A stretch of 64,000 nt of DNA, taken from the NCBI RefSeq assembly GCF_041886205.1, contig NZ_CP169029.1; one strand, written 5' to 3'. Made by a program: the position numbers and the translations under genes. The stretch is from Escherichia coli (GTDB taxonomy: Bacteria > Pseudomonadota > Gammaproteobacteria > Enterobacterales > Enterobacteriaceae). The notes under the pieces were generated by a model, which saw only the letters and a list, made by a program, of their open reading frames with translations, was not told where the DNA came from and ran no database searches. Shown piece by piece: positions 7,676 through 38,359 of this stretch (position 1 is its first letter; each line of letters begins with the position of its first letter).

Positions 7676-9268
7676 ATGGCTCGACTCTTTACCCCTTCAG
7701 AATCAAAGTATTACCTGATGGCGCTGGATGCAGGTACCGGAAGTATTCGGGCTGTGATATTCGACCTGGAAGGCAATCAAATAGCAGTGGGACAGGCGGA
7801 GTGGCGGCACCTGGCAGTACCGGACGTTCCTGGTTCTATGGAATTTGATCTCAACAAAAACTGGCAACTGGCGTGTGAGTGTATGCGCCAGGCGCTGCAC
7901 AACGCCGGCATAGCCCCGGAGTATATCGCTGCCGTTTCGGCATGTTCGATGCGTGAAGGCATTGTTTTATATAACAATGAAGGAACACCGATCTGGGCCT
8001 GCGCCAATGTGGATGCCAGAGCGGCGCGCGAAGTTAGCGAACTTAAAGAACTGCACAACAATACCTTTGAAAACGAAGTTTATCGCGCGACCGGACAAAC
8101 ACTGGCTTTAAGTGCCATCCCCAGATTACTTTGGCTGGCGCACCATCGTTCCGATATTTACCGTCAGGCATCAACCATCACCATGATCAGCGACTGGCTG
8201 GCCTATATGCTCAGCGGCGAACTTGCGGTGGATCCCTCTAACGCTGGCACCACGGGACTTCTTGATCTAACCATCCGTGACTGGAAACCTGCATTGCTGG
8301 ATATGGCTGGCCTGCGTGCCGATATTCTTTCTCCTGTCAAAGAAACCGGCACATTGCTGGGCGTGGTAAGTTCACAAGCGGCGGAACTCTGCGGTCTGAA
8401 GGTGGGCACTCCGGTGGTCGTTGGAGGAGGCGACGTGCAGCTTGGTTGCCTGGGGTTAGGCATTGTGCGTCCGGCACAAACCGCGGTTCTTGGCGGCACA
8501 TTCTGGCAGCAAGTTGTAAATTTAGCCGCGCCGGTGACAGACCCAGAAATGAACGTGCGCGTTAATCCTCATGTTATTCCTGGCATGGTACAAGCTGAAT
8601 CTATAAGCTTTTTTACCGGACTCACCATGCGCTGGTTCCGCGATGCTTTCTGTGCCGAAGAAAAACTGATTGCCGAACGTTTAGGCATCGACACCTATAC
8701 GCTGCTGGAAGAGATGGCCAGTCGGGTGCCGCCTGGGTCGTGGGGCGTAATGCCGATCTTCTCCGACAGAATGCGCTTTAAAACCTGGTATCACGCTGCG
8801 CCTTCCTTTATTAATTTGTCCATTGACCTGGATAAATGTAACAAAGCGACATTGTTCCGTGCGCTGGAAGAAAATGCGGCGATTGTATCAGCGTGTAATT
8901 TGCAGCAAATTGCTGATTTCTCGAATATTCATCCCACCTCGCTGGTTTTTGCTGGCGGAGGTTCAAAAGGGAAATTATGGAGTCAAATTCTCGCTGATGT
9001 CTCGGGATTACCCGTCAATATTCCGGTAGTCAAAGAAGCCACCGCATTAGGATGTGCCATTGCAGCTGGCGTCGGTGCCGGAATTTTTTCATCAATGGCA
9101 GAAACCGGAGAACGCCTGGTTCGCTGGGAACGGACGCACACACCAGACCCGGAAAAGCATGAACTTTATCAGGATTCACGCGATAAGTGGCAGGCAGTTT
9201 ATCAGGATCAGCTGGGGCTGGTTGATCATGGACTGACGACGTCGTTATGGAAAGCGCCTGGGTTATAG
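7676..9268 (+). CDS. lsrK: LsrK, autoinducer-2 kinase (FGGY carbohydrate kinase family, 530 aa)
   Basis: FGGY-kinase-like translation; immediately downstream of lsrR. Confidence 0.9.
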
Positions 9269-9276
9269 TTTCATTG

Positions 9277-9312
9277 ACAGCCACATCATGATGACCGTGG
9301 CTGTTAGTTTTT
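9277..9312 (+). terminator. Putative rho-independent terminator after lsrK
   Basis: Inverted repeat ACAGCCAC ... GTGGCTGT followed by TAGTTTTTGAG. Confidence 0.5.
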
Positions 9313-9798
9313 GAGTATAGTTATTCTTATTTCCCTTCTTTTAGAACTGGCTTGTTAAATGCCAGCTTGCAGATTCATCCTTCCATCACCAGTAATATAT
9401 TCAAGGTGAAATTGCTATTTTTCTTAAAGCATTAAGCATAACCCTTATTTTATAGCGAATATTCCTAAAGACATTAATGGATGCAAAAGGGGTTTAATAA
9501 ACTTCGATTTTTAGCAATTAGTGCTATTCTTTGTTAAATATGATGATGGTAATTTTCCTATTAAAAGAAACAGTTTTCTTATTAAGCAACAATAACTCAT
9601 AGTTCATTTTTAAATAAAATAAGAACTATGCAATTTTTAATCTATCAATTCGAAAGCATTAGCAAATTAGCCAAATTGACACCTTCCCACCTCCAAATAA
9701 CACTCAATACAGACCTCTGACAATTTAATAAGTTTCATTTTTGATGTCTGGCGACTCATCTCTTTCGTGGCTGTATTGTTTGTATATGGAGCGTTTAT

Positions 9799-25219: not shown

Positions 25220-26345
25220 AAAGTTGATTATCGAGGCCAAAATTCTCACCGAACCAGAGGCTGAAGTCGAGCGGGTGATGCATGTGTGTAACGCATGTCG
25301 CTATTGCGAAGGATTTTGCGCCGTGTTCCCGGCAATGACTCAACGACTGGAATTTGGCAAAGCCGACATTAACTATCTGGCAAATCTGTGCCATAACTGC
25401 GGCGCTTGCCTACACGCCTGCCAGTATGCTCCCCCCCATGAGTTTGGGATCAACGTGCCGAAAGCAATGGCAGAGGTACGTCTGGAAACTTATCAACAGT
25501 ACGCGCAACCGGCGGTCTTCGGGGCGCTGTATCGCCGGGCTGGCGTCACCGTGACGCTGGCACTGGTCTTAAGTATGTTCCTCTTTTTACTCCTGGCGAT
25601 GGGGCTGAAGGGATCGCTGCTCCACCCACCGCTGGCCGGTGATTTCTACCAAATCTTCCCGCACAACCTGCTGGCCTGGATGTTTGGATCGGTATTCATT
25701 CTGGCTATTGGTTTACTGATGGTAGGGGTGATCCGCTTCTGGCGCGAGATTTCTCCCGTCGGGCCGCGCCCAGCGGAAATTGCCGAAGCGTCGAGCAACG
25801 CGCTAACGCTAAAATATCTTGACGGCGGACATGGCAAAGGGTGCAACGAAGCGGACGATGCTTTCACATTGATGCGTCGTCGTTTCCACCATTTCACCTT
25901 CTACGGCTTTATGCTCTGTTTCGCCGCGACCATGGTGGCGACGGGTTACCACTACTTTGCTAGTTGGGAAGCCCCCTACCCATTCTTCAGTGTGCCGGTC
26001 ATGCTTGGCACGTTAGGAGGAGTCGGTTTAATCGTAGGCCCGGCAGGCCTGCTGTGGTTAAACCTTAAGCGCTCGCCACTGCATGGCGATGCGCGACAGA
26101 AACCGATGGATCGGGGATTTATTTTACTACTGCTCCTGACTAGCCTCACCGGTTTAGGTTTGCTGGTGGGAAGAGATACCTCATGGATGGGGATCCTGCT
26201 TGCCATCCATCTTGGCGTGGTCATGGCGCTTTTTTTAACAATTCCGTACGGAAAATTTGCCCACGGATTTTACCGCTGCGCGTCTTTACTCAAATGGGCG
26301 ATCGAGAAGCGACGTGGAAAACAGGCGGGGGTCGCAAGCGACTGA
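25206..26345 (+). CDS. tcuB: TcuB-like membrane Fe-S protein (379 aa)
   Basis: Cys clusters [11 protein letters not shown] and [11 protein letters not shown] followed by multiple TM segments; start overlaps the tcuA stop (ORF-track start trimmed to MKQLEK). Confidence 0.75.
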
Positions 26346-26399
26346 CCCGCACACTCTTACCTCTATACATAATTATGATAAGGCAATGGAGCAACCTCA

Positions 26400-27695
26400 A
26401 TGACTCAACAACCATCGCGTACCGGCACGTTCGGCGCAATACTCCGTGTTACCAGCGGTAATTTCCTCGAACAGTTCGATTTTTTCCTGTTTGGTTTTTA
26501 CGCTACTTATATCGCAAAGACGTTTTTTCCTGCCGAAAGTGAGTTTGCCGCATTAATGCTTACTTTTGCCGTTTTTGGCTCCGGCTTTTTAATGCGCCCT
26601 ATCGGGGCCGTGGTATTGGGTGCATATATCGACAGAATTGGGCGACGGAAAGGGCTGATGGTTACCCTGGCGATTATGGGCTGCGGCACGATGCTCATCG
26701 CCCTCGTTCCGGGTTATCAGACTATCGGCCTGCTGGCCCCTGTACTGGTCCTGGTGGGGCGTCTGCTACAGGGATTTTCTGCTGGAGTCGAACTGGGCGG
26801 CGTCTCTGTTTATCTTTCTGAGATCGCCACACCAGGCAATAAAGGCTTTTATACCAGTTGGCAATCGGCCAGCCAGCAGGTGGCGATTGTGGTCGCCGCG
26901 CTGATCGGGTACGGTCTGAATGCCACGCTGGGACACGATGAAATCTCCGAATGGGGTTGGCGAATACCGTTCTTCATTGGCTGCATGATTATTCCGCTGA
27001 TTTTTGTTCTGCGACGTTCGCTTCAGGAAACTGAAACCTTTTTACAGCGTAAACACCGTCCGGACACCCGGGAAATTTTTACCACCATTGCTAAAAACTG
27101 GCGTATTATCACTGCGGGAACCCTGCTGGTGGCGATGACGACCACGACATTTTATTTTATTACTGTCTATACCCCCACTTACGGGAGAACGGTGTTGAAC
27201 CTGAGCGCACGTGATAGTCTGATCGTCACTATGCTGGTAGGGATTTCTAACTTTATATGGCTGCCGATTGGCGGCGCGATCTCTGACCGGATTGGGCGTC
27301 TCCCGGTGCTAATGGGCATCACCTTACTCGCCATCGTCACCACCTGGCCGGTGATGCACTGGCTTACCGCTGCACCTGACGTCACCCGCATGACACTGGT
27401 GCTGCTCTGGTTCTCGTTCTTTTTTGGGATGTATAACGGTGCAATGGTAGCAGCCCTGACAGAAGTGATGCCGGTTTATGTCCGAACCGTGGGTTTTTCG
27501 CTGGCCTTTAGTCTCGCCACGGCGATTTTCGGCGGCCTGACACCAGCCATCTCCACTGCATTGGTCCAGTTGACAGGCGATAAAAGTTCTCCTGGATGGT
27601 GGCTAATGTGCGCTGCGCTGTGCGGGCTCGCCGCGACGACAATACTGTTTGCTCGTCTCAGTAGTGGTTATCAGACAGTAAAAAATAAGCTCTGA
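26400..27695 (+). CDS. tcuC: TcuC-like MFS transporter (citrate/tricarballylate-proton symporter family), 431 aa
   Basis: 12-TM MFS protein with a metabolite-proton symporter signature; last gene of the cluster. Confidence 0.8.
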
Positions 27696-27701
27696 AACGC
27701 A

Positions 27702-27735
27702 AGCAGGCAGAGATATATGTCTGCCTGCTTTCTCC
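27702..27735 (+). terminator. Rho-independent terminator after tcuC
   Basis: AGCAGGCAGA ... TCTGCCTGCT perfect 10-bp stem, 8-nt loop, then TTTCTCC. Confidence 0.6.
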
Positions 27736-27992
27736 AGTGCGCCGTAAACCGTGGGCAGCGTGGCACGGGAGTTACGTCACCGGGCTCTATGCCAACAGTT
27801 CAGTGAGTTCGCCGGCGCATCGATGGCTGGTTATGCCAGCAATGTTCAGAGGGAAGAATAATCGTGTGATCATAGCTCGCTTATTCCTTGCCTGGGTTAA
27901 ATTTTCAGACGGCTCAATCCATAAAACCGGTGACTGGGATTAACGTAAGTACGCCCTCTTTCCATCAACACTTCAGGCAGCTTGCGGGAATG

Positions 27993-28175
27993 AGTCCACT
28001 CCGGTATCAGAAATGACTATGCCTCAGAAGACAGGCGACTAACGATGTCACCACAGCAGCCTATACTGTCGGTTACGAAAGCTTATCCCATTTCAGTCGG
28101 GAATATTCGCGGATGTTTGGAGAGTCACCTAAGAGAGATATTGCCAGGTTAAGAAAGTCTGTCTATCAGCTTTAA
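27993..28175 (+). pseudogene. yneL: AraC-family regulator C-terminal fragment (second HTH only), yneL-like remnant
   Basis: Open frame reads ...[45 protein letters not shown], the characteristic end of an AraC/XylS HTH; no in-frame N-terminal domain upstream. Confidence 0.5.
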
Positions 28176-28608
28176 TAAACCCTGCATTTATCTGGTTAGA
28201 GCAATTTGGCGTTAGTTTCAGCAAGCAAACATTAACCATAGCTAATGATTTTTAGCTATATAAACCATTAGTAACTCTTGACCTTTCCTGACACTTCCCT
28301 TGTTCGCAATAATATTCTGTTTAGTCGCTGTTTATAAATAACATGCATAATGAAATCGTCATGTTATTTAGCGACATAAAATGTCTTTGCAAATACTCTC
28401 TTCAATAAGTGCAGCAATAAACTTGTTGTGGATAGGTGTCCTTGTGATTTAAAGATATTATCGTTCTTCGTGAAATGTAATAACCCTGGAAACTATATTC
28501 TCAGGGCAACAGCCAATCAAGAATGATTCTTGTTTTATAAGCAATAACAGAATGACTTAATTGTTAACTCTCTTTATTCAGCTACTTAAATGTAAATTTT
28601 GGAGAATT

Positions 28609-28749
28609 ATGAAACTCAAACATGTCGGTATGATTGTCGTTTCTGTGTTGGCGATGTCGTCTGCTGCGGTAAGTGCAGCCGAGGGTGATGAATCAGTAAC
28701 GACCACTGTTAATGGCGGTGTTATTCATTTTAAAGGTGAAGTGGTAAAT
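28609..28749 (+). pseudogene. FimA-like fimbrial major subunit, N-terminal 47 codons only (signal peptide plus start of the pilin domain)
   Basis: [47 protein letters not shown] closely matches the FimA N-terminus ([16 protein letters not shown]); reading frame is interrupted by IS3 at 28750. Confidence 0.65.
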
Positions 28750-28779
28750 TGATCCTACCCACGTAATATGGACACAGGC

Positions 28780-29646
28780 CTAAGCGAGGTTCTTGTTTTC
28801 AAATTGTTCCGGACTGAGGCCGCCACACCAACTGTGCCGCCGCCACCGATTGTAATCACATTCGATATAATTAAACACCGTTGCCCGCATTATTTCCCGG
28901 CTGATAAAGTGTTCTCCATGGATACATTCCACTTTCAGCGAATGAAAGAAGCTTTCCACGCAGGCATTATCGTAGCAGCAACCTTTTGCGCTCATACTTC
29001 CACGCAGATTATGCCGCTTCAGTTGCGCCTGATAATCTGCTGAACAGTACTGGCCTCCACGGTCCGTGTGAACGATAACGTTCCGGGGCCTCTTACGCCG
29101 CCACAGCGCCATCTGCAGGGCATCGCAGGCCAGTTGCGCCGTCATGCGTGGCGACATTGACCAGCCAATAACGGCACGTGACCACAGGTCAATGACCACT
29201 GCCAGATACAGCCAGCCTTCATCTGTACGTAAGTACGTGATGTCTCCTGCCCACTTCTGGTTCGGGCCACTGGCGTAAAAATCCTGCTCCAACAGATTTT
29301 CTGACACAGGCAGGCCGTTTGCGCGGTAGCTGACCGGGCTGAACTTCCGGGAGGCCTTTGCCCTCAGTCCCTGACGGCGCAGGCTTGCCGCCACGGTTTT
29401 TACGTTAAAGGGGTAACCCTGAGCACGCAGTTCATCCGTCAGGCGTGGGGCACCGTAACGCTGTTTTGACCGGGTAAAAGCCGCGAGGACAACGCTGTCG
29501 CAGTGTTGGCGGAACTGCTGACGCGTGCTTATCCTTGTCCGCCGCTGACACCACGTATACCAGCCGCTGCGGGCCACCCGGAGCACGCGGCACATTGCTT
29601 TGATGCTGAACTCAGCCTGATGTTTTTCAATAAAGACATACTTCAT
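28780..29646 (-). CDS. insF: IS3 OrfB transposase (DDE integrase domain), 288 aa
   Basis: Translation [32 protein letters not shown]...; DDE catalytic domain; overlaps orfA in the -1 frame. Confidence 0.85.
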
Positions 29647-29942
29647 TTCAGGCGCTTCGCGAAGTATGTCGCGGCCTTTTGGAGGATAGCCAGCTCTTCA
29701 TCCCGTTCTGCCAGCTGGCGTTTGAGACGTGCAATCTCGGTAGACATCTCCAGTTCACGTTCAGAAGACGTCTGCTGATTTTGCTGTTTACTGCGCCAGT
29801 TGTAGAGCTGTGATTCATACAGGCTGAGTTCACGGGCTGCGGCAGTAACACCGATGCGTTCAGCAAGCTTCAGGGCTTCACTGCGAAATTCAGGCGAATG
29901 CTGTTTACGGGGTTTTTTACTGGTTGATACTGTTTTTGTCAT
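29643..29942 (-). CDS. insE: IS3 OrfA (HTH and leucine zipper), 99 aa
   Basis: Translation [53 protein letters not shown]...; ORF-track start trimmed to MTKTV. Confidence 0.85.
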
Positions 29943-30007
29943 GTGAGTCACCTCTGACTGAGAGTTTACTCACTTAGCCGCGTGTCCACTATTGCTGGGT
30001 AAGATCA

Positions 30008-30343
30008 AATGTTGAACTGGATGAAACCGTGGTCACTGTCATCCCAACTCACGGTGCTATTGCCAGAGCAACATTTAATGCACAAATCGGCGGGAAAGTA
30101 TTAATGACGTTGAAGTACGGTAATAAGAGCGTTCCATTCGGTGCAATTGTCACACACGGAGAGAATAAAAATGGCAGCATTGTCGCGGAAAACGGTCAGG
30201 TTTATCTGACTGGACTTCCACAGTCAGGGAAATTACAGGTTTCATGGGGTAAAGATAAAAACTCAAACTGTATTGTCGAGTACAAGCTTCCTGAAGTTTC
30301 TCCTGGTACCTTACTGAACCAGCAGACAGCAATCTGTCGCTAA
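30008..30343 (+). pseudogene. ydeT: Fimbrial usher C-terminal fragment (ydeT-type remnant)
   Basis: ...FGAIVTHGENKNGSIVAENGQVYLTGLPQSGKLQVSWGKDKNSNCIVEYKLPEVSPGTLLNQQTAICR matches the C-terminal domain of FimD-type ushers; in frame with the FimA-like fragment once IS3 and one AAT copy are removed. Confidence 0.7.
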
Positions 30344-36676: not shown

Positions 36677-38359
36677 ATGAAGTCTGCATTAAAGAAAAGT
36701 GTCGTAAGTACCTCGATATCTTTGATACTGGCATCTGGTATGGCTGCATTTGCTGCTCATGCGGCAGATGATGTAAAGCTGAAAGCAACCAAAACAAACG
36801 TTGCTTTCTCAGACTTTACGCCGACTGAATACAGTACCAAAGGAAAGCCAAATATTATCGTACTAACCATGGATGATCTTGGTTATGGACAACTTCCTTT
36901 TGATAAGGGATCTTTTGACCCAAAAACAATGGAAAATCGTGAAGTTGTCGATACCTACAAAATAGGGATAGATAAAGCCATTGAAGCTGCACAAAAATCA
37001 ACGCCGACGCTCCTTTCATTAATGGATGAAGGCGTACGTTTTACTAACGGCTATGTGGCACACGGTGTTTCCGGCCCCTCCCGTGCCGCAATAATGACCG
37101 GTCGAGCTCCCGCCCGCTTTGGTGTCTATTCCAATACCGATGCTCAGGATGGTATTCCGCTAACAGAAACTTTCTTGCCTGAATTATTCCAGAATCATGG
37201 TTATTACACTGCAGCAGTAGGTAAATGGCACTTGTCAAAAATCAGTAATGTGCCGGTACCGGAAGATAAACAAACGCGTGACTATCATGACAACTTCACC
37301 ACATTTTCTGCGGAAGAATGGCAACCTCAAAACCGTGGCTTTGATTACTTTATGGGATTCCACGCTGCAGGAACGGCATATTACAACTCCCCTTCACTGT
37401 TCAAAAATCGTGAACGTGTCCCCGCAAAAGGTTATATCAGCGATCAGTTAACCGATGAGGCAATTGGCGTTGTTGATCGTGCCAAAACACTTGACCAGCC
37501 TTTTATGCTTTACCTGGCTTATAATGCTCCGCACCTGCCAAATGATAATCCTGCACCGGATCAATATCAGAAGCAATTTAATACCGGTAGTCAAACAGCA
37601 GATAACTACTACGCTTCCGTTTATTCTGTTGATCAGGGTGTAAAACGCATTCTCGAACAACTGAAGAAAAACGGACAGTATGACAATACAATTATTCTCT
37701 TTACCTCCGATAATGGTGCGGTTATCGATGGTCCTCTGCCGCTGAACGGGGCGCAAAAAGGCTATAAGAGTCAGACCTATCCTGGCGGTACTCACACCCC
37801 AATGTTTATGTGGTGGAAAGGAAAACTTCAACCCGGTAATTATGACAAGCTGATTTCCGCAATGGATTTCTACCCGACAGCTCTTGATGCAGCCGATATC
37901 AGCATTCCAAAAGACCTTAAGCTGGATGGCGTTTCCTTGCTGCCCTGGTTGCAAGATAAGAAACAAGGCGAGCCACATAAAAATCTGACCTGGATAACCT
38001 CTTATTCTCACTGGTTTGACGAGGAAAATATTCCATTCTGGGATAATTACCACAAATTTGTTCGCCATCAGTCAGACGATTACCCGCATAACCCCAACAC
38101 TGAGGACTTAAGCCAATTCTCTTATACGGTGAGAAATAACGATTATTCGCTTGTCTATACAGTAGAAAACAATCAGTTAGGTCTCTACAAACTGACGGAT
38201 CTACAGCAAAAAGATAACCTTGCCGCCGCCAATCCGCAGGTCGTTAAAGAGATGCAAGGCGTGGTAAGAGAGTTTATCGACAGCAGCCAGCCACCGCTTA
38301 GCGAGGTAAATCAGGAGAAGTTTAACAATATCAAGAAAGCACTAAGCGAAGCGAAATAA
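36677..38359 (+). CDS. ydeN: YdeN, putative periplasmic sulfatase (560 aa)
   Basis: Signal peptide; sulfatase-type region ...GYVAHGVSGPSRAAIMTGR with an SxPxR variant of the CxPxR sulfatase signature; start set at MKSALKK with RBS AGAGGA. Confidence 0.85.
   Translation: MKSALKKSVVSTSISLILASGMAAFAAHAADDVKLKATKTNVAFSDFTPTEYSTKGKPNIIVLTMDDLGYGQLPFDKGSFDPKTMENREVVDTYKIGIDKAIEAAQKSTPTLLSLMDEGVRFTNGYVAHGVSGPSRAAIMTGRAPARFGVYSNTDAQDGIPLTETFLPELFQNHGYYTAAVGKWHLSKISNVPVPEDKQTRDYHDNFTTFSAEEWQPQNRGFDYFMGFHAAGTAYYNSPSLFKNRERVPAKGYISDQLTDEAIGVVDRAKTLDQPFMLYLAYNAPHLPNDNPAPDQYQKQFNTGSQTADNYYASVYSVDQGVKRILEQLKKNGQYDNTIILFTSDNGAVIDGPLPLNGAQKGYKSQTYPGGTHTPMFMWWKGKLQPGNYDKLISAMDFYPTALDAADISIPKDLKLDGVSLLPWLQDKKQGEPHKNLTWITSYSHWFDEENIPFWDNYHKFVRHQSDDYPHNPNTEDLSQFSYTVRNNDYSLVYTVENNQLGLYKLTDLQQKDNLAAANPQVVKEMQGVVREFIDSSQPPLSEVNQEKFNNIKKALSEAK

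Follow-up and report, generated by a model that had tools for sequence, protein, structure and literature searches.

A probable secondary deletion scar between a dif-adjacent tcuRABC island and a yneL-type AraC remnant in Escherichia coli

Several kinds of mobile DNA are known to settle at Xer recombination sites. The IMEXs—CTXphi and TLCphi of Vibrio, the gonococcal genetic island, and CUS-1/Ypf-phi of Enterobacteria—adjoin chromosomal dif and have no recombinase of their own; the pdif modules of Acinetobacter are bounded by XerC/D-like sites; and insertion sequences of the IS1202 family have a preference for Xer sites that is known from the literature. The dif sequence of E. coli has been published (PMC3025954), and in K-12 the site lies in the hipA-yneL intergenic region (bioRxiv 10.1101/2025.09.02.673814). 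Plasmids of the IncHI1 type have a Xer site of 28 bp whose XerD arm is perfect—AGTGCGTATAA-GATGGA-TTATGTTAAAT in pETEC4077 (L005) and GGTACATATAA-CGAGGA-TTATGTTAAAT in a second plasmid (L006)—and experiments on its counterpart in R27 have demonstrated XerCD recombination that depends on FtsK (PMC11724359). Here we examine the far edge of an accessory segment beside dif in an E. coli genome (GCF_041886205.1), using a window of 64,000 nucleotides of contig NZ_CP169029.1. The locus is not mentioned in the H47 genomic-island paper or in the E. coli defence-island survey.

The window contains an exact chromosomal dif (XerC arm, 6-bp centre, and XerD arm) on the plus strand at 17107-17134, 76 bp past the hipA stop codon. 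All 28 positions of GGTGCGCATAATGTATATTATGTTAAAT agree with E. coli dif, a match for which the pattern search gives an expectation of 0 by chance, and the window therefore spans the replication terminus; GC skew over the 64 kb is too noisy to show the terminus switch. Colinearity with K-12 runs up to 17134 and stops where dif ends, so that the segment begins with the first base after the XerD arm; it is found again from 27984. Judged by K-12 colinearity and PGAP gene content, the whole segment occupies 17135-27950 (10.8 kb), and its cargo consists of an autotransporter fragment, an IS3 fragment, an MFS gene, a glycoside hydrolase gene (cellulase family), a LacI gene, and tcuRABC. The original prediction, which dealt with the opposite edge, had missed that the segment's other end is dif itself.

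Directly after the XerD arm comes a conserved element of some 85-100 bp (17135-17232; also L015 9157-9241 and L005 3748-3847), for which Rfam has no matching family. It shares 92.5% identity with the DNA after dif in Nissle 1917 and adjoins dif in 959 genomes; in IncHI1 plasmids a diverged homologue comes right behind the Xer site. The hipA-dif-backbone order is uninterrupted in 3356 of 5426 complete genomes (query L002 7640-7890), and most of an evenly spaced sample of the others lose their K-12 match at query positions 154-163, where 154 is the final dif base. Roughly one complete genome in three departs from K-12 at or near that base, and the XerD side is among the most variable spots on the chromosome. 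A candidate reading of "...ATTATGTTAAAT" as the tip of a neighbouring ISNCY element, with the K-12 DNA after hipA as an IS-end remnant, was rejected—the 28-mer is dif, and its plasmid copies are Xer sites. As a separate observation, a transposase gene of ISKpn21 type (ISNCY/IS1202 family) is found immediately on the XerC side of both the IncHI1 Xer site (L006 5310-6822) and the dif of strain SEV1 (L018 16904-18437), a position that agrees with the published targeting of Xer sites by the IS1202 family.

The last cargo genes form a predicted tcuRABC cluster, recognisable by its LysR regulator, the FAD dehydrogenase TcuA, the 4Fe-4S protein TcuB, and the MFS transporter TcuC (ORFs of 308, 467, 379 (annotated), and 431 aa, with names from PGAP). 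The final gene, tcuC, is a 431-aa ORF on the plus strand at 26400-27695, named as an MFS tricarballylate transporter after PGAP in strain LHM10-1; that near-identical record places an MFS transporter after tcuR, tcuA, and tcuB. The tcuC stop codon, TGA, occupies 27693-27695, and 6 nt past it a terminator scan and a repeat finder pick out a putative intrinsic terminator (27701-27730, plus strand): a G+C-rich hairpin made of a 15+15-nt inverted repeat, 93% complementary, then the T-rich run TTTCTCC. The hairpin is kept in the ETEC strain TW10590 and in tcu plasmids, and the inserted tcu operon stops at it on the 3' side. Neither the terminator nor the spacer after tcuC is out of the ordinary. 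LHM10-1 is 100% identical to the window over 27600-28400; elsewhere the window has 292 extra bp at 17506-17797, in the autotransporter fragment, and no IS1 in ydeN (36825-36834), and it therefore represents a sister strain.

A single junction between the tcu cargo and an AraC-type remnant had been proposed for this region. Its location was right, but comparison of the window with K-12 BW25113 (L002), Z1323HEC0399 (L003), TW10590 (L004), and the IncHI1-type plasmids L005 and L006 resolves it into three junctions, at 27730/31, 27862/63, and 27946-27950, and tcu proper ends at the first of these. At 27730/31 the tcu operon abuts backbone of IncHI1-plasmid type. In IncHI1 plasmids without tcu the backbone is joined at the terminator's 3' limit (27730)—in pSY3626_190k_tetX (PLSDB type IncHI1A/MOBH), for example, the sequence preceding tcuR runs straight into TTTCTCCAGTG...—and the operon proper therefore stops with its terminator. 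The non-coding backbone that accompanies tcu, 27731-27862 (132 bp), is 93-94% identical to the tcuC 3' flank of pETEC4077 and of the TW10590 chromosome, and IncHI1A plasmids without tcu, pSY3626_190k_tetX among them, have a homologue of it as well. Matching plasmid places number 40, and most of them span only window 27728-27862.

The second junction, 27862-27863, is a deletion scar at which the window is without about 186 bp (L004 ~9169-9354): window 27000-27862 corresponds to L004 8305-9168, and window 27862-27948 to L004 9359-9444. TW10590 and pETEC4077 are colinear through L004 9235; since the missing DNA is thus partly present in the plasmid, the window has the deleted form. Beyond this scar lies an orphan fragment of 83 bp (27863-27945), whose sole match is L004 9359-9444 (90.8%), inside the TW10590/0-4 island. 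A search of PLSDB plasmids for its source gave no match, and neither did two scans of 100,044 species genomes. The third junction is a 5-nt zone, TAAGT, at 27946-27950, where a three-way comparison of the window with L004 9396-9496 and L003 7953-8053 shows that homology to the TW10590-type island stops and homology to the AraC remnant starts. From 27984 onward the window matches L004 from 10274 and K-12 from 8001; from 27948 onward it matches L003 from 8001. Short direct repeats had been suggested as a thing to look for at the breakpoint; none flank the scars at 27862/63 and 27946-50, where microhomology amounts to at most 1-3 nt.

Three candidate readings of the 83-bp fragment were considered. 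It is not a piece of the yhaV toxin gene, since in TW10590 tblastn detects just codons 7-26 of yhaV, and these lie outside the fragment; in the window itself there is no yhaV by tblastn and no YhaV by Pfam, and the fragment is not detectably yhaV or prlF. A 21-nt similarity to K-12 dif-proximal DNA (17/21) is probably due to chance, its score being reached by 8 of 500 shuffles of the window copy versus 183 of 500 for the TW10590 copy. An extra GTTAAAT at 27896 is not supported as a third attachment core: this copy has 3 mismatches to the XerD arm, and the window shows no excess of matches resembling that arm (29 versus 24 expected).

The stretch without a credible gene extends from the tcuC stop to the AraC remnant, 27696-27950, and at 255 bp agrees with the roughly 260 bp first estimated. 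Could this spacer be functional all the same, through its 68-aa ORF (27737-27943), a small RNA, or a promoter for the AraC remnant or the fimbrial genes further on? We consider this very improbable. The ORF exists, and a single weak promoter-like match (9/12) falls within the spacer at 27833-27862. Promoter-like matches, however, exceed the shuffled expectation only modestly (6 versus 2.3 across 1.3 kb), and Rfam returns nothing above noise on either island edge, spacer included. The ORF has no Pfam match at E<=1, in keeping with the original prediction that it lacks family features. It runs over the first deletion scar; a 1-nt indel near 27746 separates the window from all relatives compared; the TW10590 equivalent lies in a different frame; and the frame is not kept in the plasmids either. 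Coding conservation is found upstream neither for the AraC remnant nor for this ORF, which on these comparisons is an accident.

The AraC remnant itself, 27951-28175 on the plus strand, holds the last 74 codons of an AraC-family regulator of AraC_N type—the end of the first helix-turn-helix (HTH1) and the whole of the second (HTH2)—as indicated by Pfam and by homology to K-12 and Z1323HEC0399. In the frame that ends at 28175, Pfam reports HTH_18 at E=3.9e-13 (profile positions 6-76 of 80) and HTH_AraC, on the second motif, at E=5.7e-9. The start of HTH1 is missing, and the linker is broken by a TGA and 18 bp of deletions. The TGA, at 28014-28016 (plus strand; seen in the alignment, the sequence, and the translation), is TGG in K-12 and Z1323HEC0399. 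The deletions relative to K-12 fall within 28026-28040 on the same strand (alignment A1 columns 428-470), 2 bp being lost after 28026 and 16 bp after 28039; together they leave the frame unchanged, and only the few residues that separate them (RRQAT) are read out of frame. An open frame ending in a well-preserved second HTH had been described here: the HTH sequence is confirmed, but given the TGA the frame is really open for just 53 codons (28017-28175), which include no start codon. Over its last 43 codons it departs from an E. coli fragment (P0001) at 2 positions. Homology to AraC genes begins at about 27951, and PGAP draws the pseudogene from 27939 (to 28175), with the note in LHM10-1 "internal stop; incomplete; missing N-terminus".

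Relatives are broken in other ways. K-12 yneL has a 1-bp deletion and Z1323HEC0399 a 17-bp duplication, so that each of the three strains has its own, independent set of lesions and its own 5' limit; in the evenly spaced genome sample, many have a further truncation or no AraC remnant at all. The remnant is, to judge from these lesions, a long-dead gene decaying under no constraint. With the reconstructed C-terminus as query, the only matches are Klebsiella proteins and, in E. coli, short fragments of 82-140 aa. The Klebsiella relatives carry AraC_N (PF06719) and HTH_18 (PF12833), and their gene spans about 910 bp, or roughly 300 aa, although it is frameshifted in the assemblies retrieved. A K. 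pneumoniae relative (P0122/P0012) is 84-94% identical in amino acids over the retained C-terminal ~80 residues. Compared with that gene of ~300 aa, which has an AraC_N domain and a sugar-kinase/DeoR context, the window keeps the inactivated tail only—74 of ~300 codons, or about a quarter.

An intact or nearly intact AraC-family gene across ~27740-28175, a single frameshift away from being readable, has next to no chance of being correct. Its one favourable sign is that the reading frame (+0) can be followed upstream to 27888 (ORF 27888-28016); this ORF, however, has no AraC_N or HTH match before residue ~19, and Pfam finds no AraC_N in the remnant or in the upstream DNA. The window thus has no intact ORF with a start codon and AraC_N (PF06719), as an AraC/XylS gene would. 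The full-length homologue is ~300 aa with AraC_N, of which just the 74 damaged codons are left here. The DNA upstream of 27951 is moreover homologous to the tcuC flank and the island, not to AraC genes, which agrees with the original view that no AraC gene can be rebuilt over 27740-28175 by allowing one frameshift.

The label yneL-like, given to the remnant from the start, holds up well. An AraC fragment between dif and the yde fimbrial genes is what K-12 has, and the window is colinear with the common K-12 locus and gene remnant over 27984-28432 (90.8% identity including gaps). Both K-12 yneL, between dif and ydeT, and the window allele are annotated by PGAP as incomplete HTH pseudogenes, and the query 27600-28400 finds a match to some part in 5139 of 5426 genomes. 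The alleles differ in that the window has 33 more bp at the 5' end (27951-27983) and the TGA with its 2-bp and 16-bp deletions, in contrast to the 1-bp deletion of K-12; upstream of the remnant lies island DNA in the window versus 207 bp of dif-proximal backbone in K-12. The remnant is, on this alignment, another allele of the known yneL pseudogene.

Several observations concern the neighbouring fimbrial genes. In some E. coli the AraC remnant is fused to the 3' part of a fimA-like gene (P0144, P0148, P0160); these fusion ORFs reflect deletions between yneL and the fimbrial operon, and the arrangement in BL21-AI is similar (H29). In the window (28609-30343) an IS3 element with transposase ORFs at 28780-29951 interrupts the first yde fimbrial gene, fimA-like, some 48 codons into its frame, and just the last ~110 codons of the yde usher are left (30009-30343), a bigger loss than the K-12 ydeT deletion. 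Upstream of the fimbrial operon, an AT-rich stretch contains a perfect 11-nt inverted repeat at 28335-28370, TAAATAACATG / CATGTTATTTA, with a 14-nt spacer; it is invariant in three aligned strains and may be a putative regulator binding site.

What kind of boundary, then, is the junction at 27946-27950? Relatives with other cargo at this site share a conserved right boundary, "...ATAAGTTAAAT/CATGTCTGAG" (the slash marks the boundary), beyond which the K-12 backbone resumes as it stands right after dif. TW10590, which carries tcu and a prlF pseudogene, ends in "...ACTCAACATAAGTTAAAT/CATGTCTGAG", the latter being K-12 position 7787 onward; the Avs4 island of Res13-Lact-PEB20-37-A (L013) ends in "...CACAACATAA"; and NT1F10 and SEV1, with ATPase islands (L014 and SEV1) of ATPase and restriction cargo, end in "...CCCAGAATA". 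In TW10590, Res13-Lact-PEB20-37-A, NT1F10, and SEV1 the K-12 backbone resumes at the identical base after a copy of GTTAAAT. The relatives' right end, "...ATAAGTTAAAT", has only 7-9 nt in common with the XerD arm. The window is without this canonical right end and without ~190 bp of backbone; K-12 L002 7794-8000, to the right of the shared boundary, is absent.

Since a conserved right end of relatives and ~190 bp of backbone are both lost, the junction is most likely a secondary scar, and we judge it probable that 27696-28175 as a whole is non-functional wreckage at the far edge of a dif-adjacent island. The earlier claim of a recombination boundary of the accessory segment therefore survives in part: accessory DNA does meet conserved DNA here, although probably through later deletion. 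We infer from the relatives that the island would once have carried the canonical right end, as TW10590 still does. In the window's lineage this end would have stood beside a longer AraC remnant of the Z1323 type, and one illegitimate deletion of ~800 bp would have taken ~610 bp from the island and ~190 bp from the backbone; what went from the backbone would be the upstream part of the longer remnant. The same event would have fused the 83-bp fragment to what is left of AraC.

The alternative is that the junction is a primary integration boundary, created when illegitimate recombination at 27946-50 placed the island, or its tcu part, directly in a longer AraC remnant. We regard this as unlikely, though two facts speak for it: the 5' limit of the AraC remnant is found in this junction type alone, and none of the 5426 complete genomes represents the pre-deletion intermediate, a window-type island with an intact right end. 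The intermediate state is consequently reconstructed from a different lineage, TW10590, which has the shorter, K-12-type AraC remnant and a rearranged left side; this, like the failure of the PLSDB and 100,044-genome scans to find a source for the 83-bp fragment, counts against the scar. On the other side, the counterpart of the junction fragment is internal to the TW10590 island, at a distance of 616 bp from its end. At least three other island types have one precise right boundary, by dif-proximal backbone, and that backbone (K-12 7794-8000) is gone from the window; the nearby second scar at 27862/63 shows that this edge has undergone deletions. A secondary deletion scar remains our preferred reading. 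Either way the junction can be used to compare strains, as had been suggested: the window form occurs in 6 of 5426 complete E. coli genomes, and the TW10590 form in 2. It is a rare, precise marker (6/5426) of one tcu-carrying lineage or island type and has little weight otherwise; the context—a plasmid-type metabolic operon directly against dif—is worth more than the junction.

Related islands show further features. Past tcu, TW10590 has a prlF pseudogene (Pfam 1.5e-27; tblastn 8e-54) and then yhaV codons 7-26 (by tblastn); in full, L004 9484-9892 holds the prlF antitoxin pseudogene, with two internal stops, and the first 26 yhaV codons. Intact prlF/yhaV homologues (89% DNA identity) occur on many plasmids of Escherichia, Salmonella, and Citrobacter. 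The TW10590 chromosome is rearranged at dif, with corA and ysgD nearby, and on its XerC side filamentous-phage genes (L012 1-4844: Zot-family, DUF2523, and a pIV/GspD-type secretin) end ~140 bp before dif and look like a CUS/Ypf-type prophage. In SEV1, ETEC6, and TW10590, two very divergent tyrosine-recombinase genes directly follow dif (L018 18572-21725; L019 16300-18432; L012 5406-7815); these have no Pfam match at 1e-3 and weak NCBIfam matches only. The cargo after the paired recombinases is of defence type (HNH, restriction endonuclease, ThiF/MPN, and nucleotidyltransferase genes), with Avs4 in L013.

A broader interpretation, which we put forward tentatively and hold at somewhat below even chances, is that the XerD-side flank of dif is a species-wide integration hotspot for one element family shared with IncHI1 Xer sites. 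Members of this family would have in common a left end of ~85-100 bp, which IncHI1 plasmids also show after their Xer site, a right end that is likewise conserved, "ACAACATAAGTTAAAT", and the 7-bp common core GTTAAAT; some would carry the two very divergent tyrosine recombinases, and others would be integrase-less. In this way the site would capture operons from plasmids (tcu, for example) and defence systems (Avs4, for example) beside the terminus, and the window island would be a member in decay, its recombinases and right attachment site gone. Should a dedicated recombination system be at work, whether XerCD or the paired integrases, it would be an under-described route by which plasmid cargo and defence systems reach the chromosome terminus.

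Among the closest described systems are the IncHI1 plasmids. They have a Xer site, then a ~100-bp homologue of window 17135-17232, and then tcuRABC; over 5.2 kb of this last part, backbone flanks included, plasmid and window are 95.8% identical. In the window, unlike these plasmids, the site is chromosomal dif itself, and a 5.4-kb block (17233-22688) stands between dif and tcu. The sequence similarity suggests that the tcu block came from, or shares common ancestry with, the IncHI1 region adjoining the plasmid Xer site, and direct recombination between the plasmid site (xrs) and dif is a plausible route for it. The first 84 bp after dif agree at 92.5% with the phylogroup-B2-type chromosomal flank (Nissle 1917) but at only about 71% with the plasmid, and capture from plasmid to dif is therefore not directly shown for the window strain.

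The pdif modules of Acinetobacter offer a resemblance only: in both cases cargo modules, a toxin-antitoxin remnant included, adjoin Xer-type sites, but the tcu block has no bracketing pair of full XerC/D sites. Like the IMEXs, the window segment directly adjoins chromosomal dif. PGAP annotates no integrase in 17135-27950; sister islands at the same site carry two tyrosine recombinases next to dif. A difference from the IMEXs is that no second dif-like site is left at the far boundary, the window holding no other site within 7 mismatches of dif. The shared 7-bp core may reflect either XerCD activity, as in IMEXs, or the action of an integrase from the island, with an attB that shares sequence with the XerD arm. 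By its position, the window island belongs to the known class of dif-adjacent elements.
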